64,000 nt of DNA from Candidatus Latescibacterota bacterium (GTDB taxonomy: Bacteria > Krumholzibacteriota > Krumholzibacteriia > WVZY01): positions 288,001-352,000 of the forward strand of contig CAWBQK010000006.1 of NCBI GenBank assembly GCA_963791045.1, given 5' to 3'. Below are positions 46,102 to 62,307 of this stretch, piece after piece (positions within the stretch are counted from its first letter, which is position 1; the number at the start of each line of letters is the position of its first letter). The notes below the pieces were generated by a model, which searched no databases, was not told where the DNA came from, and saw only the letters and a program-made list of their open reading frames with translations. The position numbers were made by a program, and so were the translations under genes.

Positions 46102-47652
46102 TTGGCGCAACAGCATATATTGTGGGTCGACGACGAGATCGAACTCCTCAAATCACATATTCGCTATCTCGAGGGCAAGGGCTATCGGGTGAGCACAGCG
46201 GCCAACGGAGAGGATGCGATCCGGCTTGTTGGAAGCGAGAAGTTCGACATCCTCTTGCTCGACGAGTCCATGCCCGGCAAGGGCGGTCTGGAGACGCTAA
46301 CGGAGATCAAGGATCTCGACCCCGGTCTCCAGGTCGTGATGATTACCAAGAATGAAGCCGAACAACTGATGGATGACGCGATCGGCATGCAGATCGCGGA
46401 CTATCTTCTCAAGCCGGTCAACCCGATGCAGATCCATTCGGCGTGCAAGCGGATTCTCGACTCGCACCGGCTCCAGGAAGATCGGTTTTCACAAGACTAT
46501 GTCAAAGAGTTCACCAACATCCATTCGCTCATCGAAGACGATTCGTGGGAGAGCTGGGTGACGATCCATTCCAAATTGAGCCGGTGGGATCTCGAGTTCG
46601 ATAGATTTCGCGACAGCGGGCTCGAAGACACGCACGACGACCAGAAGCAACAGACGAGCATGCACTTCAGCCGGTTCATCGAGAAACACTACCGCGATTG
46701 GGTCGCCTCCGAGGATCGCCCGCCGCTGAGTGTGGATATTTTTAAGAATTTTGTCGCGCCACAGATGAAGCAGAACGACAACGTGATGTTTATCGTCATC
46801 GACTGCGTGCGGCTCGACCAGTGGTTTATTATCGAGGAGATCCTCAGGGACGAATTCGATATCCGCAGAGATTACTACGTTTCGATTCTTCCCACCGCAA
46901 CGCCCTATTCACGCAACGCAATATTCAGCGGGCTTTTCCCCGACGAAATCGCGCGAAAGTATCCGCAGAGGTGGCTCGAGCGGTCAAAGGATGAAATCAG
47001 CAAAAACCGTTTCGAAGAATACTTTCTCGGCGAACAGATGAAGCGCCACGGATTCGACGCCACCAAAATGAAGTATTCGAAGATCTACGCCGTTCAGGAA
47101 GCCAACGAGTTGAAAAAGAAGGTGGACGCGCTGGTGTCGCTTCCGTTCAACGCGATGGTTTTCAACGTTGTCGACATTCTCACTCACGGACGAAATCAGT
47201 CGGAAATCCTCCAGCAAATCGCGCCGGATGAATCGGCGTTCCGGTCCGTGGTTCGTTCGTGGTTTTCACATTCGGTCTTGCTCGAAATTCTCAGGGCGTG
47301 TGCCCGCAAAAAAGTCCCTGTTGTAATGACCACCGACCATGGGTCGATTCTTGGACGCCGTGCGAGTCTCGTCTACGGCCGTCGTGACACGTCGACCAAC
47401 CTCCGGTATAAATTCGGCGACAATCTCAAGTGCGACGAGAAACAGGCGATCGTGACCCGCAAACCGGGCGAGTATCGTTTGCCGGCCGAATCAAAAACAA
47501 AAACCTATCTCTTTGCCAAAGAGTATTTTTATTTTGTTTACCCGACGAATTTCCGCGATTATGAGAAGCATTATCAGGGCAGTTTTCAACACGGGGGTGT
47601 ATCCCTCGAAGAGATGATTCTCCCTTGTTTAACCCTGACGCCAAAATCCTGA
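46102..47652 (+). CDS. porX: PorX-like response regulator (receiver plus PglZ alkaline-phosphatase-fold domain)
   Basis: WVDDEI...LLDE.MPG...MITK receiver; IVIDC.R.DQW, ILPTATPYSRNAIFSG, VDILTH, TTDHG, NLRYK.G, FQHGG.SLEEM; tsaE directly downstream. Confidence 0.85.
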   Translation: MAQQHILWVDDEIELLKSHIRYLEGKGYRVSTAANGEDAIRLVGSEKFDILLLDESMPGKGGLETLTEIKDLDPGLQVVMITKNEAEQLMDDAIGMQIADYLLKPVNPMQIHSACKRILDSHRLQEDRFSQDYVKEFTNIHSLIEDDSWESWVTIHSKLSRWDLEFDRFRDSGLEDTHDDQKQQTSMHFSRFIEKHYRDWVASEDRPPLSVDIFKNFVAPQMKQNDNVMFIVIDCVRLDQWFIIEEILRDEFDIRRDYYVSILPTATPYSRNAIFSGLFPDEIARKYPQRWLERSKDEISKNRFEEYFLGEQMKRHGFDATKMKYSKIYAVQEANELKKKVDALVSLPFNAMVFNVVDILTHGRNQSEILQQIAPDESAFRSVVRSWFSHSVLLEILRACARKKVPVVMTTDHGSILGRRASLVYGRRDTSTNLRYKFGDNLKCDEKQAIVTRKPGEYRLPAESKTKTYLFAKEYFYFVYPTNFRDYEKHYQGSFQHGGVSLEEMILPCLTLTPKS

Positions 47653-53453: not shown

Positions 53454-56400
53454 TTGCGACATCGCCGCCCGGACAAGCTCTTTTCGCATCGCCCCCTCTT
53501 GTTCCTTGTTCTCGCTGTATTTGTTTATCTCCCCAGCGCCGTTCTTTCACAAAATGAATCCACGGACAGCAGTCCGCCGCCCCCAACCCGCCGCGACAGC
53601 GTATTTCGATACGATGCGGGAACGACTTCAATAAGAGAAATAAACGGGGAAACGGTTCTCGAGGGAAGGGAAGGCGTCAGAATCATCCACGGGGATGTAA
53701 CCATCACCGCGGACCGCGGGCTGCATTACAGGGGGCGCCAGCTCACCTATTTTATTGGCAACGTCAATATCGATCAGGACGAAATGCACATGCAGGGGGA
53801 TGAGGGTGAGTACCGGCGAGCCGATGACATCGCCATCCTCAGGAACCATGTGCAAATTCGCGACCGGGGGCTCGAGATTGATTGTGACGAGGCGACCTTC
53901 CACAGGACGACCGAACGCGCCTGGCTCAAAGGGAATGTAGTGGTCGTAGATTCGGCCACGACGCTTACCGCCGACAGCCTCTACTACGACAAGGCAAATC
54001 TCGTTTCCGAGGCGTTCGGCAACGTGGAGATCATCGATCGCAAAGAGGGAATCCGGCTGACGGGACGGCATGGTTTTTATTACCGGGAAACCGGCGTGGG
54101 AATCATGGACCAGCTCCCCCGGCTCACAGTGGATCCCGACAGCAAGGAACCCACGACGGTCGACAGCGATACGATGTTGTTTTACCCCGACAAGAGAATG
54201 GCCGTTGCCCACGGCCGAGTGAAGATCCTCAAAGGCGGGACGGTCACGCAGTGCGATTCCGCCGTCGTTCTCGATGACCTGCAGCGGGCGGAACTCTACG
54301 GGAACCCCCTCGCCAAACAGGGCAACGTGTCGATGCAGGGCGACAAGCTGGTTATGGGTTATGACGAAGATCAGGTCAACCAGATCGATATCATCGGCAA
54401 GGCGACAATAAAGGAGACGCCCAAGGACTCGCTGGTGATAGACAGGGACAGCTGGGTGCGCGGCGATTCCATGGTGCTATATATGCGTGAAAACAGACTC
54501 GATTCGATGAGCGTGTCCGGGTCTGCGGAAAGCGAGTACTACCCGGCGAGCGTCGACCGTGTCGAGGCGAACTACGCTCGCGGTGACAGTATGTTCTTCA
54601 CCTTCAAAAACGACTCGCTGGACCACGTGTGGATAATCGGTAAGGCCGACGGCGCCTATCGATATGTGAGACTCGCGCCGAACGAGACGGCCGATTCGCT
54701 CCGCGCCGCGCGGGACACGTCGTACACGTATATCCCATTTGTCGAGAATGCGGAGCGGGTTGTATATGCGGCGGATACCATTCAGTATTTTTCGAAGCAG
54801 CATGATCTGGTTTTGAACAGCAAGGCAAAGGTCGACTATCGTGGCAAGACGCTTCTCGGCGACAATATTACCTACTCGGCCGATCTCGAACTTCTCGACG
54901 CGACGGGGTCCCCGGTCCTGATAGAAGGTGTCGATAAGCTATACGGAGACCGGATGGACTATGACATGGATCTGGGGACGGGACTCGTCCAGGAAGGGGC
55001 GACCCAGTTCATGGACGGATTTTATGACGGCCGTCGAATCGCCAAAGTGGGGGACAATATTCTCAAAGTGTGGGATTCGAAATATACCACGTGCGATCTC
55101 AAGATTCCGCACTATCATTTTACAAGCAACAGGATGAAGGTGTATCTCGACGACAAGGTCGTTTCGGGTCCGATCGTTCTCTACATAGGCGAAACTCCGA
55201 TCATAGCTCTTCCGTTTTTTGCGCAGAACATCCGCCGCGGTCGGCGTTCGGGGATCTTGAGACCGACTTTTGAGTTCGGGGTGAACTCCAACAAGGACAG
55301 GTTTATTCGAAATATCGGTTATTACTGGGCCACTAACGACTATACCGATTTCACTTTCATCTCCGACTTCAATGAGAATCGCTCGGTGAGGTTCCGGATC
55401 GATAACCGCTACAAACTCAGATATGCCTTCAACGGCGGGTTTAATTTCTCGTGGTTCCGGGATCTCCAGGAGTATCGCAACGAGTGGACATTCCAGGGGC
55501 GGCACGATCAAACCCTCGGCGAGAAGGCGTCTTTTAACGCGAACTTGAGATTTGTCAGCAGCGACCGGGCGCCAAAGGATGTCAGCCGAATCGACGAGGT
55601 CGCCGATGTGATCGACCGCCGCATCGAATCAACGGCGAGTCTTCGCAAGACCTGGAGCGCATTTGGTTTCAGCGCGTCGGGCAGGCGAACCCAGCTTCTC
55701 GACGTTCCCGACACAACGACCGTTCGCGTGAGCACGACACTTCCGAGCATCGCGCTGTCCGTCCCCGCTATCACGCTCTACTGGGGAGAAAAGAGAAAAG
55801 CGGGATTCGAGACGATTTGGCAGAAGGTTTTCGACAAGGTCAGGATATCGCCGGGCATTTCGGGCAACCGCAAAGTTGACGAAAAAGCGTACGAATGGAG
55901 AGAGGTTATCACCGCGAACGCCTCGCTCGGCGCGACCGCGCCCTTCAAGCTGGGTTTCCTGAACCTGACACCCCGGATATCGGCGAGCGACGCGTACAAC
56001 CGCACAACGATCGATCGCTGGTCGCATGAAGTTGATGTCGATGATTCGACGGTGGTTATCGTCAAGGGTGATGGTCCCGTCACCGAGTCGGACAACGTGT
56101 TCAGCTGGAATGCGGGAGCCGGGGCCACCACCAATTTCTTCGGGACCTTCTATCCTCGTGTGGGGGCCCTGCGCGGTCTTCGCCATACGATGACGCCGTC
56201 GGTGAGCTATACCTACACTCCGCCGCGCGCAAGCCGGTCGGCGAATCAGAGGTTCAATGTGAGCCTCAAGAATGTCATCGATCTGAAAATACTAAGCAGC
56301 AAGCAGGTTGATGAAGGCGACTACGACCCCGAGGGAGGGAGTTCTTCGCTTGCCGAGAGGGCCGATCACAAGGAGCTGAGGAGGGGTGATGTGGAGACGG

Positions 56401-57131
56401 AAAGCGACGAGAATGCTCCTAAGTCCGCCGAGGAAGAACAGGAGGAAGCGGAGGAGCTCAAAAAGCTCTCAGGCGTCTTCATTTGGACGCTGAGTTCTTC
56501 CTACGACCCGGCGAAGGTATTCAACCAGGGATGGTCGAATATCAGCAGTTTGATGAATCTCAAAGTGCTGGGAACGAGTCTCTCGATAACCCAGTCGATA
56601 GATCCCTTCGATTTCAATATTCTGTCGACACGGTTGTCGACATCGTTCCAGTTCCGCGGGCACCACCCGTTCGGGTCGGCGGTGGCGACAAAGCGTGAAC
56701 TCAACATCGTCGCCGCGGACACGACGGAGGCCGTGGGGCTCGATGTGGGCGGCGAGCCCGAAGCGGAGGAAGAAGAGGACAAGGGGCTTCCGTGGAACGT
56801 CGGGCTCGGATTTAGCTATTCGAAAGCGGATGGGTTCGACGAACCGAGTTCGACGCTTAATCTCAACGGCGGAATCTCGCTGACACACGGGTGGCGGCTT
56901 TCGTACAGGACGAATTATGACGTCGTCGACCGCGACTTCCTTGGAGAGTATTTCAGTGTTGCGCGAAATTTGCATTGCTGGCAGATTTCGTTTTCCCGAC
57001 AGAAACTCGGTGACGAATGGGAATTTTATTTCAAGATCAGCATCACGTCGCTTCCCGAACTCTATGCCGAACAGGGCAGCCGCGGTTTGGGCAGCGGTAA
57101 TAGCACTTTTGGTTCTCCTTTGGATTATTGA
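53454..57131 (+). CDS. lptD: LPS-assembly protein LptD with a long N-terminal OstA/LptA beta-jellyroll region
   Basis: Signal peptide, repeated GNV.I/ADS..Y OstA strands, YTTCDL..PHYHF, SGIL.P, GYYWA, C-terminal RNLHCWQ. Confidence 0.85.
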   Translation: MRHRRPDKLFSHRPLLFLVLAVFVYLPSAVLSQNESTDSSPPPPTRRDSVFRYDAGTTSIREINGETVLEGREGVRIIHGDVTITADRGLHYRGRQLTYFIGNVNIDQDEMHMQGDEGEYRRADDIAILRNHVQIRDRGLEIDCDEATFHRTTERAWLKGNVVVVDSATTLTADSLYYDKANLVSEAFGNVEIIDRKEGIRLTGRHGFYYRETGVGIMDQLPRLTVDPDSKEPTTVDSDTMLFYPDKRMAVAHGRVKILKGGTVTQCDSAVVLDDLQRAELYGNPLAKQGNVSMQGDKLVMGYDEDQVNQIDIIGKATIKETPKDSLVIDRDSWVRGDSMVLYMRENRLDSMSVSGSAESEYYPASVDRVEANYARGDSMFFTFKNDSLDHVWIIGKADGAYRYVRLAPNETADSLRAARDTSYTYIPFVENAERVVYAADTIQYFSKQHDLVLNSKAKVDYRGKTLLGDNITYSADLELLDATGSPVLIEGVDKLYGDRMDYDMDLGTGLVQEGATQFMDGFYDGRRIAKVGDNILKVWDSKYTTCDLKIPHYHFTSNRMKVYLDDKVVSGPIVLYIGETPIIALPFFAQNIRRGRRSGILRPTFEFGVNSNKDRFIRNIGYYWATNDYTDFTFISDFNENRSVRFRIDNRYKLRYAFNGGFNFSWFRDLQEYRNEWTFQGRHDQTLGEKASFNANLRFVSSDRAPKDVSRIDEVADVIDRRIESTASLRKTWSAFGFSASGRRTQLLDVPDTTTVRVSTTLPSIALSVPAITLYWGEKRKAGFETIWQKVFDKVRISPGISGNRKVDEKAYEWREVITANASLGATAPFKLGFLNLTPRISASDAYNRTTIDRWSHEVDVDDSTVVIVKGDGPVTESDNVFSWNAGAGATTNFFGTFYPRVGALRGLRHTMTPSVSYTYTPPRASRSANQRFNVSLKNVIDLKILSSKQVDEGDYDPEGGSSSLAERADHKELRRGDVETESDENAPKSAEEEQEEAEELKKLSGVFIWTLSSSYDPAKVFNQGWSNISSLMNLKVLGTSLSITQSIDPFDFNILSTRLSTSFQFRGHHPFGSAVATKRELNIVAADTTEAVGLDVGGEPEAEEEEDKGLPWNVGLGFSYSKADGFDEPSSTLNLNGGISLTHGWRLSYRTNYDVVDRDFLGEYFSVARNLHCWQISFSRQKLGDEWEFYFKISITSLPELYAEQGSRGLGSGNSTFGSPLDY

Positions 57132-57278: not shown

Positions 57279-57572
57279 GTGAACAAAACTCAGCTAGTAG
57301 AGAAGGTCGCCAACAGAACTGGTATGACACTTAAGGACTCAAAAATCGTAGTCGATGCGATTTTCAGCACGGTCCCGAAGGAGGGTATTATAGCCTCTGA
57401 GTTGAATGCGGGTCGTAAGGTCCAGATTACGGGTTTTGGCACTTTCCAGATTCGGAAAAGGAAAAAGAGAGAAGGCAGAAATCCCCAGACGGGTGAGCCG
57501 ATCATGATTCCTGCATCTCGTTTTCCGTCTTTTTCGGCTGGTAGGGCTCTGAAAGATCGAATCCGCAAGTAA
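57279..57572 (+). CDS. hup: DNA-binding protein HU
   Basis: MNKTQLV, V.ITGFGTF, R.GRNPQTGE...IPA...P.F.AG..LK. Confidence 0.96.
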   Translation: MNKTQLVEKVANRTGMTLKDSKIVVDAIFSTVPKEGIIASELNAGRKVQITGFGTFQIRKRKKREGRNPQTGEPIMIPASRFPSFSAGRALKDRIRK

Positions 57573-57599
57573 GGATTTACTGCTTGCCGGATAGTTTAC

Positions 57600-57627
57600 A
57601 AGCGGGGCTTCGAGCCCCGCTTTTTTT
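57600..57627 (+). terminator. Intrinsic terminator after HU
   Basis: AAGCGGGGC-TTCGA-GCCCCGC followed by T7. Confidence 0.9.
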
Positions 57628-57741
57628 GTGTCCGTTTGGATCGGAGTCCCACCTTGCAGCGGTCTTGCCTCTGTACGGGCCGTGTGGTATTTTTACTGGA
57701 GACTCAATCAGACGAACGCCGCTGAATTCGAGGAGAGCGAT

Positions 57742-59145
57742 TTGAAAATCATCACGATCATCGTTCTGTGTGCAGCCGTGCTGGCCGGTATGTCCCCACC
57801 GTCCTCGTCCGAGGATGTGGGTATGAACACGATCCAGCTGGTCTACCACAGCGATACGCGCGGGTACTATCTGCCCTGTGGCTGAAACACCAGCGCGGCG
57901 GGCGGTCTGGCCCGCAGAGCAAGTCTCTTGGCCGAATACCGGTCGGGGGGGCTCCCGCTTCTCCTTGTGTCGGGCGGCGATGTTTATGGTGGAAACGACG
58001 CCTACAACAGGCCTAAGTGCAGTTTTCTGGCGCGCATGATGGCACGGTTGGGTTACGACGCGGTGGCGCTTGGAGAGAAAGATCTCAATTTCGGCCTGGA
58101 TGCCATCGTCGAAGACGATGAGACGTTCGGGCTCAACGTTATCTGCGCCAATCTTTTCCCAAAGAAGACGTCCGGGGATGGTGCCGCTGAAATGGCTGGG
58201 TCCGGCGTATCCCCCGTTTTTCCGGCGTATAAGATTGTCGAGCGTGGTGGGGTTCAATTTGGTGTGGTGGCCGTGCTTTCGCCGGCGGCAAAGAACGAAC
58301 GGATCGCGGCTGAAAAAGGCGAAGTCGAAACACTCAACTATATAATCAAAAACCCGATTCCCGTGTTGGCCGAAATCATTCCCGAAGTCGAGTCCCAGTC
58401 CGATGTCGTCGTGCTCGTCGCTCACATGAGAAAATCCGAACTCGATCAAATCTTTGAATCGGTGTCCGGGATCGACATGGTCATCCTCGGTCACAGCGCG
58501 AAGGCGCAGGTGACGCCCGAGCCGACTATCATCCGTGAGATTCCCGTTTATATGGCGAGCCACCAGGGCCAGTATATAGGTCGCGCGTTGTTGTCGTTCG
58601 ATTCAGCCAACCGGCTTGTTGAGACGGTCAACGAAGTCAAGCTTCTCGACAGCAGCGTTCCCGATGATCCCGAAATGAAAATTCTCCTGACCGAATTCGA
58701 AAAAGAAAACAGGAAAATCCAAAAGGAACTATTCGTTCGCGAGCAGCTACAGGCCAAAACAGGGAAGGCGGCGGTCCAGGATGTTTACCTCGGCATCGCC
58801 AACTGTCAGGAGTGTCACGCCGATGCCTTCGATTCTTACCTTGGTACGATGCACGCCAGGGCCTACTCGACGCTCTCCGAAGCGTTCATGCACAGAGACT
58901 CCGGGTGTGTGCCGTGTCATTCGACGGGCTATGGATTGAGGGGTGGGTTCGACGGCGTCCGCGTGCCGGGAAGCATGGTTGATCTGGTCGATGTTCAGTG
59001 TGAGGCCTGCCATGGGCCCGGCGCCGCACACTCGCGTGACGGTCGCTATCGAACCACTGCGCGGGAAAGTTGTATAAGATGTCACACGGAAGAACAAGAT
59101 CCTGACTTTGATTTCGAAAAGGCATGGGAAAAAATTGCTCACTAA
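57742..59145 (+). CDS. Probable selenoprotein: secreted UshA-like metallophosphoesterase-fold domain (C-G-U) fused to a tetraheme cytochrome c (c554-like) domain
   Basis: GAGGAG RBS and TTG start; ORFs 57628..57885 and 57928..59145 share a frame and are separated only by TGA 57883-57885 in HSDTRGYYLPCG*NTSAAGGLARRA; four CxxCH motifs (CQECH, CVPCH, CEACH, CIRCH). Confidence 0.85.
57883..57915 (+). promoter_or_regulatory. UGA codon with a bacterial SECIS-like hairpin
   Basis: GCGGGC-GGUCUG-GCCCGC stem-loop beginning 12 nt after the UGA; GGU CUG falls at codons +7 and +8. Confidence 0.75.
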
Positions 59146-59926
59146 GGTTTGCCTAATTATTGTCTGCGTTCTCTCGGTGTTCGCACCGCCGGTTTTATCG
59201 CAGACAAGTGATTCATTTCTTATCCCCGGCGCGGACTTCTCGCAACTCGTCCTCGAAGCGGGTGGATGGTGTCGGTATCTTGTTGTCGATGAAGCACTTG
59301 GACAGGCTGACTCAACCGAGGTTTATATTGGAATCCCGGGGAGCGAAATCACCGAGCGGGGACGAGCGTATTGGGTCGAACTTGTGTCGACGCCGCTCCC
59401 GGCGGTTTCCGGTGGTGGCGAAGTTATCAAACTACTTGTCCTGGAGCAAATCACGGAATTTTCTGATGGAGATTCTCTTGGTCAATACGTGCTCAAACTC
59501 TATATTAAAAAAGGCGCCCAACCTATCGAAGAAAAGGATCCGGAAAGTTACGAGGACTTTTCTCTTATAGTGCCCACCGCTGAAGCGTTGTGGGAGTCCT
59601 CCCCGGGAACAGAAGTTTCCACGAAGGGAGGTGCTTTTAACTGTACGAAAAAAACGCGCAGCGCTCAGAGTAACCAGGAAATCCCCACCGGCAAAATCAA
59701 GCTGATCAAGAAATCACGGGATGATTACACCGTCTGGTTTTGCAACGACGTTCCAGTTTTCCGTTTGGTCAAATGCGTAATCGAGCGTTCCAGAGAGACC
59801 GATACGGTTCCACGAATTGCCGGGATCCCCGTTTCGGGGCCCAAATACTCGAGAACGGAAGCTGAGTTGACCGCGTTTGGCGATGACGCCACGCCAATCC
59901 TCGGAACCGGTGACTCGACCCGGTGA
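59135..59926 (+). CDS. Hypothetical secreted protein
   Basis: Signal-peptide-like N-terminus (LLTKVCLIIVCVLSVFAPPVLSQ); overlaps the stop of the upstream selenoprotein; EV.TKGG.F.C...VWF...VPV beta-rich tail. Confidence 0.7.
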   Translation: MLTKVCLIIVCVLSVFAPPVLSQTSDSFLIPGADFSQLVLEAGGWCRYLVVDEALGQADSTEVYIGIPGSEITERGRAYWVELVSTPLPAVSGGGEVIKLLVLEQITEFSDGDSLGQYVLKLYIKKGAQPIEEKDPESYEDFSLIVPTAEALWESSPGTEVSTKGGAFNCTKKTRSAQSNQEIPTGKIKLIKKSRDDYTVWFCNDVPVFRLVKCVIERSRETDTVPRIAGIPVSGPKYSRTEAELTAFGDDATPILGTGDSTR

Positions 59927-59949
59927 TCCGCACAAAGGAGGATGGCCCG

Positions 59950-62307
59950 ATGAGATACCCCTGGGGATTCATAGCTGTCTGCCTGGTGACAATCGCAGTC
60001 CTGGCACCGACCACCCCCCTTTCCGCTTTTACCCATTCCGAGACTCCCTCTCTCGTTGCCGTCGGTGAGACACCGAGCATTTCGGCTGAACGTTATTACG
60101 TTAATGCGCAGGCGGTCGATGAGTTGGAGTTGATTGCACTTCGCAAAGCACTCATCGAAAACGGCGCGCAGAAGGTGAATCTTTTTCTCCCCCAGAAAAT
60201 AATTGTCTGTGACGTGCCTGAGACCATGGATTTGGGGCGTTTCATCACGGACCCGCGAGTTTCATTCTTCGAGGAAGCCCAGGTCGGTCCGCGGCTGATC
60301 GCGGACAACGGCGGCGGTCTGGATTTCGTGAAGATGTGCTACGACCGGTTGCAGCGGCAATCTGCGGCCGGTGTGAACCACGATTTCAACGATGTCGTGG
60401 TGAGGTCCAGGCCGGAGGATATCGAGGCGTCAAAACACAAAATGACGATGTCTCCCGTGTCAGGCATGGTCGAGGAAAGGACCATCGAACAAAACTCGGA
60501 GTTTCTGGTTGGAGATATACTTGTTCAGCTCGTTTTTCCCGAGAGTGCGGGCAGTGCGGAAAACTGGACGGACGAGGTCATTGCCGATGCCGCATCGGGG
60601 GCGTTTGCCGCCGTGATGGATTTCCAGGCGCAGTTCGGTTTTGCTCCGATTCATTATGTGCTGAGGAGTGAATCGAAGGTGCCCACGACCTACGAGCCGA
60701 TTCGTACGGAGATGGACGAGCATGTCGAGTGGATCTATGAAGTCATGACAAACCTCGGAATCACGGCCGGCAGGTCGGCTGAACTGATGGTGCATGATTT
60801 CAACAACTTCTTCAGGCGATACTACGCGACCGACTGGGCGTTCACCGCGTTTATCGCGAACAGCGAGAACGCTCCGAACCACAGGTTCGCCGATCAGTTT
60901 TACACCGCATACGCGACGCTCGGCGGTCCCTATCTTGTGATACCATTTCCCGCGGGCGAGAATCCAAACGATATCGATCCCTGGCTCGTTTACTCCACAG
61001 TTTTTCAGCACGAGATGGGTCACGTTTTTTGGGCGCTCGATGAGTATCCTGCGGAGATCAACTTGTCCACGTGCTCCTCCCGTACAGGGTATCTCAATTA
61101 CGCGAACGGCAACAAGGTCACGCAGCTTCTCGATGGCACTTACGGACACTGTCCGGGAGTGGAAACCGAAGTCTGCATTATGTGGCTTGCCAAGGAGGAC
61201 CACGGCCGACCGGTCTGCCCATTCACGGAGGGGCAGCTCGGGATCATTGATTTTAACAAGAACAATATCCCCGATGTGTTCGATGCGGCCCCAATGGTTG
61301 AGTTCGAAGGCGCGGCGGTTGAAACCGTCCAGGCTCCCGATCTGACGATCAATATGAAGGCGATTGCGGGCGCCGTGCAAAATATTAACCCGCTCCAGGA
61401 TCCCGATGCCCGGCGAAGCTACGCGCCGCCGCTCAAGGACGCCGTGCTCACAGTCGACGGGATCGGCAATGTTCGGCTCTCGCCACAGGATGGCAGGTGG
61501 GACGAGACGGAGGAGGATCTGTCGATCACAATCAAGGGGATTAAGGTTGGGTTGACGGAAGTTGGCCTGACTGTCAGGAACTCGTTCGGGAAATCGTCCG
61601 CCGAGATCATCAAGAAGATTTATTTCGCCGGAATTAATTTCGCGTTGTTCGATGCCAAACCGAGATCCGACGGCATCGAGGTGAAGTGGAGCACCGTGGG
61701 CGAGACTTTTGGCGCGCGTTTGGATCTCTACAGGATCGACACGTCTTTCGGCGCGCCCGATACCACACTTCTCGCGGGAGATGTCCAGCCCAATCCGCAC
61801 TCTGGCGGCGCTTTCAATCAGTATGCGTATATGGACAAGGATATCCGTCCCGGCTACGACTACAGGTATTTCGTCGAAGGTTACTTCGAATTTGTTTACA
61901 ACGATACGACGATCGAGTACAACCCGGTTTCCGGCACGTTCGGGGCGCAGAGCATGTTCCCGATACCGTCCGGACAGCTGTCGTCTTACGTGTCGCCGAA
62001 CCCGTTCAACCACGTTACGAAGATATCGGTTCGTGTCCCCAACACGTATGCGGCACCTGTCGGAGACAACCCGAACGCGACGAATGGAGTATCCCAACCG
62101 CAGCAGTCGGATGTGGAAGTCACCGTGTTCGATGTTCAAGGCAAAAGGGTCAAACGGATATTCAAGGGAAGCATGTATGGGGGAGTGAGGAACTTCGAAT
62201 GGGACGGAACAAATGAGAACAACATCGCGGTTACATCGGGTGTCTACTTTGTTAAGACTAACGCTGGGCCCGCCGCCGAGGTTAGAAAGATAGTTCTGGT
62301 TCGGTAA
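59950..62307 (+). CDS. Secreted zinc metalloprotease-like protein with a C-terminal FlgD-Ig / T9SS-type sorting domain
   Basis: AAGGAG RBS, signal peptide, QHEMGHVFWALDEY with a Met-turn-like CIM, C-terminal SPNPFN...VFDVQGKRVK...WDG.N...TSGVYFV...KIVLVR. Confidence 0.8.
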   Translation: MRYPWGFIAVCLVTIAVLAPTTPLSAFTHSETPSLVAVGETPSISAERYYVNAQAVDELELIALRKALIENGAQKVNLFLPQKIIVCDVPETMDLGRFITDPRVSFFEEAQVGPRLIADNGGGLDFVKMCYDRLQRQSAAGVNHDFNDVVVRSRPEDIEASKHKMTMSPVSGMVEERTIEQNSEFLVGDILVQLVFPESAGSAENWTDEVIADAASGAFAAVMDFQAQFGFAPIHYVLRSESKVPTTYEPIRTEMDEHVEWIYEVMTNLGITAGRSAELMVHDFNNFFRRYYATDWAFTAFIANSENAPNHRFADQFYTAYATLGGPYLVIPFPAGENPNDIDPWLVYSTVFQHEMGHVFWALDEYPAEINLSTCSSRTGYLNYANGNKVTQLLDGTYGHCPGVETEVCIMWLAKEDHGRPVCPFTEGQLGIIDFNKNNIPDVFDAAPMVEFEGAAVETVQAPDLTINMKAIAGAVQNINPLQDPDARRSYAPPLKDAVLTVDGIGNVRLSPQDGRWDETEEDLSITIKGIKVGLTEVGLTVRNSFGKSSAEIIKKIYFAGINFALFDAKPRSDGIEVKWSTVGETFGARLDLYRIDTSFGAPDTTLLAGDVQPNPHSGGAFNQYAYMDKDIRPGYDYRYFVEGYFEFVYNDTTIEYNPVSGTFGAQSMFPIPSGQLSSYVSPNPFNHVTKISVRVPNTYAAPVGDNPNATNGVSQPQQSDVEVTVFDVQGKRVKRIFKGSMYGGVRNFEWDGTNENNIAVTSGVYFVKTNAGPAAEVRKIVLVR

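Follow-up and report, generated by a model that had tools for sequence, protein, structure and literature searches.

We analyzed a 64,000-nucleotide stretch of DNA from a Candidatus Latescibacterota bacterium (assembly GCA_963791045.1, contig CAWBQK010000006.1, positions 288,001–352,000), referred to here as the window, and focused on a gene at positions 57742–59145 in which a single TGA codon interrupts an otherwise open frame. The source genome consists of 21 contigs and is 81% complete. Conceptual translation of the forward strand shows that 57742–59145 is one frame whose sole internal stop is the TGA at 57883–57885 (codon 48). The two open reading frames obtained with translation table 11 (57628–57885 and 57928–59145) lie in this same frame, which bears out the preliminary description of this DNA, where they were taken as two pieces of one 467-residue protein split by the TGA. 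The read-through product combines a signal-peptide-like N-terminus, a 5′-nucleotidase-fold domain that carries a P-C-G-U motif, and, following a long helix, a domain resembling cytochrome c554. The sequence around codon 48 reads ...HSDTRGYYLPCG[U]NTSAAGGLARRA..., and the gene has the following features.

57730–57735, + strand: Shine-Dalgarno-like GAGGAG, 6 nucleotides 5′ of the TTG start at 57742
57742–59145, + strand: full putative selenoprotein gene, 467 codons plus TAA, with the TGA at codon 48 read as selenocysteine (Sec)
57742–57813, + strand: signal-peptide-like N-terminus, with K2, a hydrophobic stretch of 14 residues (I3–G16), and polar SPPSSSED; no lipobox Cys
57823–58656, + strand: 5′-nucleotidase/UshA-fold (metallophosphoesterase) domain, residues about 28–305, catalytic His lost
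57877–57885, + strand: codons TGT GGC TGA for Cys46-Gly47-Sec48, with the TGA at 57883–57885
57898–57915, + strand: hairpin resembling a selenocysteine insertion sequence (SECIS), with a 6-base-pair G/C stem (57898–57903 with 57910–57915) and a 6-nucleotide apical loop (57904–57909), proposed from fold, pairing, and synonymous-site conservation
58669–58758, + strand: long linker helix between the domains, residues 310–339, from the secondary structure of the model
58774–59142, + strand: cytochrome c554-like tetraheme domain, with CxxCH motifs at 58804–58818, 58906–58920, 58999–59013, and 59071–59085

Reading frame, start site, and export

The GAGGAG ahead of the TTG codon corresponds to the ribosome-binding site that had been proposed earlier. 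The open frame itself extends further upstream to a GTG at 57628, which lies inside the T-run of a terminator, and the aligned relatives start at the position of the TTG. The signal peptide and the four c-type heme motifs of the preliminary description could both be located in the sequence, the former as K2 followed by the hydrophobic stretch and the latter as C355–H359, C389–H393, C420–H424, and C444–H448. Hydrophobic N-termini are present in all 27 aligned relatives, four of which (L031, L032, L036, and L040) carry a lipobox-like G-[GS]-C. Attachment of c-type hemes takes place outside the cytoplasm, and a c-type cytochrome that lacks an export signal cannot mature. The selenoprotein is therefore probably exported, given the hydrophobic N-terminus here and in the 27 relatives and the extracytoplasmic attachment of c-type hemes.

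As noted earlier, the downstream fragment taken alone (57928–59145) lacks a signal peptide; it begins with LAEYRSGG and has no hydrophobic segment at its N-terminus. The expectation that standard annotation would truncate the gene agrees with what is found in public databases, where 99 of the first 100 matches listed begin 3′ of the P-C-G-U motif.

Domain architecture and family membership

With Sec read as Cys, the best NCBIfam match of the protein is NF041198, "UshA-like (seleno)protein" (UshA_like_PCGU; E = 1.1e-70), which covers both domains. Of the 519 positions in this profile, 14–272 and 356–519 are matched and 273–355 are not, the window protein being about 50 residues shorter. The nearest relatives score 239.1 and 245.9 bits, and more distant ones reach 280.7 (L072), 283 (L066), 296.2, and 353.1 bits; L072 and L066, which exceed the curated cut-off of 275 bits, come from the same phylum and share the same gene neighborhood. 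The window protein itself scores 238.8 bits, which is below the cut-off and counts against a straightforward assignment. Since relatives from the same phylum pass the cut-off, we regard the protein as belonging to a divergent branch of NF041198; under NCBI's rule it is no equivalog. The gene is thus a divergent member of the already catalogued UshA-like PCGU family, and the family itself is not new.

The AlphaFold model of the protein has a mean predicted local distance difference test (pLDDT) score of 74.9, with most of the N-terminal domain above 90. Foldseek returned CD73 and bacterial 5′-nucleotidases as top matches (E about 1e-20, template modeling (TM) score 0.52 over about 320 columns), and a sequence profile search of the PDB matched 5′-nucleotidases (3e-26), cytochrome c554 (1bvb; 6.4e-14), and, weakly, SoxB (2.9e-9). 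These results agree with the metallophosphoesterase-like, UshA-type body described earlier. Matches to the family-level models of known enzymes stay below their cut-offs, with 39.8 versus 600 for UshA (NF007109) and 59.4 bits (E = 1.9e-16) versus 550 for SoxB (TIGR04486). The window protein has no match to Pfam Metallophos at E ≤ 0.01 and none to the C-terminal nucleotidase domain PF02872, the region past residue 340 being the heme domain.

The only Pfam domain found is the c554-type heme domain (PF13435; 50.8 bits, gathering threshold 20.8), which, together with the 1bvb match and the four CxxCH motifs, corroborates the tetraheme c-type domain of the preliminary description. All four motifs are invariant in the 27 sequences of the window's clade, and H371, H430, and the C-terminal H467 are candidate distal heme ligands. 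The heme domain is modeled with pLDDT values of only 37–57, a point against this part of the model that we ascribe to modeling without hemes.

The genome was also searched for cytochrome c maturation genes, a check proposed in the preliminary description. It contains two Cytochrom_C_asm (PF01578) genes on contig 11, which are of the System I type; the System II maturation protein ResB was not found in this genome (81% complete). One of the two Cytochrom_C_asm matches (contig 11, 182136–182693) lies in a frame that includes a TAA and may represent two adjoining genes or a broken gene.

Evidence that the TGA codon encodes selenocysteine

The same early description had pointed to the Sec machinery as a check, and all of its components were found in the window's genome: selA (460.5 bits), selB (373.7 bits), selD (373 bits), and tRNA-Sec (66.1 bits, anticodon tca), each above its cut-off. 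Across the phylum, selA was found in 200 of 208 genomes and matches to the selenoprotein in 201 of 208; both are present in all 125 high-quality genomes.

Exactly one in-frame TGA occurs in 143 of the 150 phylum matches listed; the remaining seven comprise four Cys forms, one match that starts after the motif, and two second copies. Among the 30 closest loci, the column holds TGA in 26 and a Cys codon (TGC or TGT) in four, always within an invariant P-C-G-x, so the earlier observation that the TGA occupies a Cys position of related proteins holds. Cys forms recur in a wider search of species genomes, which gave 80 loci (59 with C-x-U, six with P-[AV]-G-U, 12 with Cys-Cys, and three not assessable); these 80 loci are partly shared with the phylum genome set, and the two sets are not independent. 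When all 110 unique family sequences are considered, position 48 is U in 89 and Cys in the other 21. Conservation also spans the TGA: in the 27 sequences of the clade, Y35, D38, P45, C46, and G47 before it and G54, G55, R58, and R59 after it are invariant.

The TGA could in principle stem from an error in sequencing or assembly, mark a lesion in a pseudogene, or act as a true stop that leaves a 47-residue peptide and a cytoplasmic protein of 405 residues. Public gene calls do begin 3′ of the TGA, and, to the disadvantage of the Sec assignment, raw reads (four runs, the best of which contained 0.24 of the sampled words) gave no coverage of 57816–58355; the reads thus speak neither for nor against the base call and are silent on expression. 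An artefact is nevertheless very hard to reconcile with a single TGA that recurs at the same column in independent assemblies (26 of 30 loci and 143 of 150 listed matches), with the invariant residues ahead of it, with the Cys that replaces it in relatives, or with a c-type cytochrome that would be left without the export signal needed for its maturation. Because the TGA is conserved across about 140 genomes, these readings are excluded in practice. Organism-wide reassignment of TGA to Trp or Gly, which has the open frame and nothing else in its favor, has a negligible chance of being correct, since six of the 10 genes in the window with a family annotation stop at TGA, relatives align Cys and neither Trp nor Gly at this position, and the Sec machinery is complete. 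On these comparative grounds, the TGA at 57883–57885 very probably is a selenocysteine codon, and we hold with high confidence that the gene is a real selenoprotein of the UshA-like PCGU family.

Several further observations concern the Sec genes and the Cys forms. The possibility that Cys forms mark genomes without Sec machinery was rejected, as all four genomes with Cys forms (G178, G179, G189, and G192) have selA. In a sister genus, second copies that lack an in-frame TGA and are 34–35% identical stand beside the Sec form (G188:C1:1515905-1517191 and G190:C5:207242-208483). The selD gene (contig 6, 361456–362382, about 9.5 kb past the end of the window) contains one in-frame TGA and probably encodes a selenoprotein as well. 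About 700 bases downstream of tRNA-Sec on contig 18 (158792–158887 / 159590–160189; L007/L019), a GTPase-like frame also has one in-frame TGA and shows a weak match of the selB/EF-Tu type (66 bits).

A SECIS-like hairpin downstream of the UGA

The stem of the SECIS-like hairpin begins 12 nucleotides past the UGA, and the hairpin spans positions 16–33 counted from the U. Its loop contains a G-U that we take to be as far from the UGA as in the Escherichia coli fdhF element. We compared third-codon-position entropy at conserved four-fold codons and obtained 0.75 bit for the seven columns within 14 codons past the UGA versus 1.48 bit for the 47 columns elsewhere (one-sided Mann–Whitney p = 0.003). 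The codons of the stem are nearly fixed, with GGC for Gly+6 in 26 of 26 rows, GCC for Ala+9 in 23 of 24, and CGG for Arg+11 in 19 of 19. These three codons vary less than every one of the 47 control columns, and the loop codon Gly+7 varies freely. For the three core pairs, pairing is preserved in 24, 24, and 22 of the 24 unique Sec rows versus one, four, and one of the four Cys rows. The rows in the pair and entropy counts are related sequences, so that their independence is overstated.

Other results argue against the hairpin. Its stability is not above chance, as judged by z = –1.1 relative to dinucleotide shuffles of the 63 nucleotides past the UGA, and synonymous recodings (48 nucleotides, 30 loci) gave a mean z of –0.74 for the 26 Sec rows, only five of which reached 0.05. 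An Rfam scan of 57500–58300 at E ≤ 10 returned no SECIS family; all matches in that region were subthreshold and rested on the GC hairpin and U-run of the upstream terminator. In addition, two alternative hairpins suit different clades, the second and more distal one having 9–10 of 10 pairs in other clades versus 6–7 of 10 in the window's clade. Folding energy is too weak a measure here because the Ala/Gly/Arg-rich peptide imposes a GC-rich RNA in any case, and it was therefore replaced by the synonymous-site and pair counts. Conservation of synonymous sites and of pairing supports an RNA constraint downstream of the UGA.

Conserved and lost active-site residues

In the alignment with 5′-nucleotidases, GNHEFD corresponds to G111-E112-K113-D114-L115-N116, which places Lys at the catalytic His and Glu at the Asn. 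His at this position does not belong to the six commonest residues of the column in the 110 family sequences. The motif-I His corresponds to Arg40 in the window protein, as assigned by inspection because the motif lies beyond the printed alignments, and is Arg or Lys in 68 of the 110 sequences. The catalytic His of GNH is thus lost, and the protein should not be called a nucleotidase. It retains the fold of the 5′-nucleotidases and, as far as alignments can tell, lacks their hydrolytic machinery. The GG-x-AR motif, which had been thought special to the family, aligns with the GGVAR of ordinary 5′-nucleotidases and does not distinguish it.

What is retained across the 110 sequences is Sec or Cys at position 48, without exception, together with invariant G54, G55, H371, and H430; Cys46 is kept in 104. 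Six of the 80 wider loci (L079, L080, L086, L093, L105, and L109) have Ala or Val instead of Cys46 and keep Sec, in a P-[AV]-G-U-G motif, which argues that Sec itself, and no obligatory Cys-Sec pair, is the essential group. An obligatory redox pair of Cys and Sec, as suggested in the preliminary description, is therefore doubtful.

Genomic neighborhood

The selenoprotein gene is part of a block conserved in the phylum, which consists of an LptD-like gene, HU, the selenoprotein, a 263-residue protein, and then either a protein tagged for the type IX secretion system (T9SS) or an RNase T-like exonuclease. The neighboring features in the window are listed below.

53454–57131: LptD-like protein of 1225 residues with LptA/LptC/OstA-like N-terminal domains, 5′ of the selenoprotein gene in 25 of 30 related loci
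57279–57572: HU/IHF-like gene, upstream of the selenoprotein gene
57600–57628, + strand: intrinsic-terminator-like hairpin and T-run that end the HU/IHF-like gene and set it apart from the selenoprotein operon
59135–59926, + strand: exported all-β protein of 263 residues that belongs to no known family and has an invariant Cys46; the last codons of the selenoprotein gene overlap its TTG start
59923–62307, + strand: third gene of the apparent operon, encoding a 794-residue protein with a C-terminal T9SS sorting domain

The gene for the 263-residue protein stands beside the selenoprotein gene in 27 of the 30 related loci, and 29 of the 80 wider loci have a called homologue downstream. The protein matches no Pfam or NCBIfam family. 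Its single invariant Cys lies in a G-x-W-C-R-Y motif, as seen in an alignment of 24 rows from which L043, whose row contains a stop codon, was left out. The structural model is confident and all-β (pLDDT 86.9), and Foldseek gave weak matches to open β-barrels of the LolA/LolB/RseB/LprG/YmcC type (TM 0.25–0.37), which provide a hint of the fold and no assignment. We also considered whether the neighbors reveal the substrate and rejected this idea, as the conserved block resembles housekeeping synteny and not a pathway. Elsewhere in the window, 46102–47652 encodes a PorX-type T9SS response regulator (NF052313, 649.7 bits). This regulator and the sorting domain of the 794-residue protein make it probable that a type IX secretion system is present in the organism.

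Proposed function

The following sequence of events would account for the features described so far. SelB and tRNA-Sec would recode UGA48, aided by the hairpin just downstream, and the Sec pathway would export the protein to the periplasm, where it would receive four c-type hemes from the Ccm system. The N-terminal domain, a 5′-nucleotidase fold that appears to lack its hydrolytic machinery, would owe its conserved chemistry to the P-C-G-U loop that immediately follows the first metallophosphoesterase motif. Sec48, with assistance from Cys46 in proteins that have it, would be the reactive center of a redox enzyme, and electrons would arrive or leave via the c554-like four-heme wire. We consider it likely that this is one exported Sec protein of the UshA-like family and, taken together with that, a generic heme-wired Sec redox enzyme. 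The most plausible substrates would be thiols or disulfides, or a related chalcogen compound; that the reaction is thiol/disulfide-type chemistry is a tentative proposal, to which we give slightly less than an even chance.

A clade of Cys forms with the motif E-L-E-P-C-G-C (L145–L164), found in Nitrospirota and Thermodesulfobacteriota, bears on the latter proposal. Its proteins are shorter and have lost most metal ligands. A DsbA-like gene lies directly downstream in all 20 loci with downstream DNA, and one further locus ends at a contig edge before the downstream gene. Translation of one DsbA-like neighbor showed a signal peptide and a CYSC motif. Neither DsbB nor VKOR was found in four genomes of this clade, the completeness of which is unknown. 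Among genomes of the window's phylum that are at least 90% complete, DsbB was found in none of 129 and VKOR in two (one of them over the cut-off). The arrangement of the E-L-E-P-C-G-C clade, with a more distant DsbA-like gene, recurs in a gammaproteobacterial metagenome-assembled genome (L172).

Heme-coupled thiol/selenol redox chemistry in the periplasm is the testable hypothesis that follows from these contrasts, because the hydrolytic His is lost, Sec/Cys48 is universal, and the neighboring Cys is optional, and because one clade has a neighboring DsbA-like gene and searches for DsbB and VKOR gave few or no matches in the lineage in which the protein is universal. A more far-reaching version sees in the family a thiol-disulfide machine of the bacterial envelope that is wired by hemes and works without DsbB. 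Client proteins or a DsbA-type partner would then undergo selenenylsulfide or disulfide exchange with Sec48 or Cys48, and electrons would flow between the four hemes and the respiratory chain in one direction or the other. For the Krumholzibacteriia/Latescibacterota lineage, this would mean that disulfide chemistry in the periplasm depends chiefly on this selenium-dependent catalyst, in line with the low counts of DsbB (0 of 129), VKOR (two of 129), and DsbA-like proteins (nine of 129) and with the presence of the gene in 125 of 125 high-quality genomes and in a block with LptD and a secreted protein with a single invariant Cys. In a bolder variant, the one heme without a conserved distal His would be ligated on that side by Sec48 or Cys46.

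Two findings weaken the thiol link for the window gene itself: Thioredoxin_4/DsbA-like proteins are rare in the window's phylum (nine of 129 genomes at least 90% complete), and the DsbA-like family PF01323 has no match in the window's genome (81% complete), so that the link to DsbA comes from a distant clade of Cys forms. Many anaerobes, moreover, simply lack periplasmic disulfide formation. For these two reasons, the distant origin of the DsbA link and the frequent absence of disulfide formation in anaerobes, we regard the DsbB-independent machine as rather unlikely.

A different role for the conserved center, that of a metalloenzyme, seems to us still less probable. Here, D38, D80, E112, H228, and H251 would coordinate one or two metal ions in a site that Sec48 (with Cys46) completes or caps, the hemes carrying electrons; the enzyme could be SoxB-like and act on a sulfur/selenium oxyanion adduct, or it could use a metal-based redox site. 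A metal site is indeed possible in the window's clade, and this weighs against a purely selenol-based redox center: all of its 27 sequences have D38, E112, and H228, and at least 90% of them have D80 and H251, in each case at the metal-ligand positions of 5′-nucleotidases, and the CGU loop follows immediately on motif I. Sec is known to ligate metals in formate dehydrogenases and [NiFeSe] hydrogenases, and there are the weak SoxB matches (TIGR04486 at 1.9e-16; PDB SoxB at 2.9e-9). The picture changes family-wide, where the ligand equivalents are kept in only 72–80 of 110 sequences as opposed to 110 of 110 for Sec/Cys48, and where Arg or Lys takes the place of the motif-I His in 68 of 110. The E-L-E-P-C-G-C clade lacks equivalents of D38, D80, and E112 (from its consensus, by inspection), and the SoxB score of 59.4 is far under the cut-off of 550. 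We therefore retain the heme-wired Sec redox enzyme as the preferred reading.

Truncated gene calls affect not only this gene. Among the phylum matches listed, public annotation cuts about 140 orthologues short in addition to the window gene, and the truncated product loses both its export signal and its only selenocysteine. The gene is part of the core genome of an entire candidate phylum. It belongs to a large family, with more than 500 related stretches in a species-level genome collection, and this family is one of the few abundant selenoprotein families without an assigned reaction.

Comparison with known systems

UshA-like selenoproteins with a CxU motif had been predicted before, as the preliminary description stated. 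The relevant table in Zhang and Gladyshev 2008 (PMC2398784) lists "COG0737, UshA-like, CxU" among the major marine selenoprotein families, and the part of that paper dealing with the family describes it as lacking a classical redox motif. The family also appears in review tables (PMC9312934 and PMC13188914), in the later of which (PMC13188914) it is entered under NF041198. In the full-text literature, supplements aside, we found the UshA-like CxU family in catalogue tables only, with no experiment on any member, which must be set against the functional reading proposed here; nor did the same texts yield a paper on the function of the family, its fusion to a heme domain, the DsbA-like neighbor, or its occurrence in this phylum. 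The window protein shares with the literature family (COG0737) both homology and a CxU motif at an in-frame UGA. With NF041198, it has in common the two-domain architecture (UshA-like plus C-terminal multiheme), the P-C-G-U motif, the alternation of Sec and Cys, and four CxxCH motifs; it differs, together with its nearest clade, in the lower score (238.8–245.9 versus 275) and in having about 50 fewer residues.

The likeness to 5′-nucleotidases, UshA, and CD73 lies in the fold, the GD and GG-x-AR motifs, a conserved His after the β-strand "LAH," and the GH motif. Unlike these enzymes, the window protein lacks a substrate-binding domain at its C-terminus, has Lys or Met for the catalytic His of GNH[ED], and has Arg for the motif-I His; instead, it has gained a Cys-Gly-Sec loop and is fused to a tetraheme domain. 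SoxB thiosulfohydrolase is a periplasmic member of the same 5′-nucleotidase superfamily that acts on sulfur compounds, and its similarity to the window protein is weak. The latter has hemes and lacks both the dimanganese ligand set and the C-terminal domain of SoxB.

Cytochrome c554 has one five-coordinate heme. In the window protein, which resembles the Nitrosomonas cytochrome (PF13435; PDB 1bvb and 1ft5) in its four CxxCH motifs with matching spacing, the three conserved His residues outside these motifs would likewise leave one heme without a distal His. The two differ in that c554 is a free electron carrier, whereas the heme domain described here, with its predicted ligation, forms the C-terminal part of a larger enzyme.

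DsbB and VKOR would be functional analogs if the disulfide reading were true, as they re-oxidize a DsbA-type partner and pass the electrons to the respiratory chain. There is no relation in sequence or fold, and unlike DsbB and VKOR, which are quinone-using membrane proteins, the window protein is predicted to be a soluble or anchored heme protein of the periplasm.

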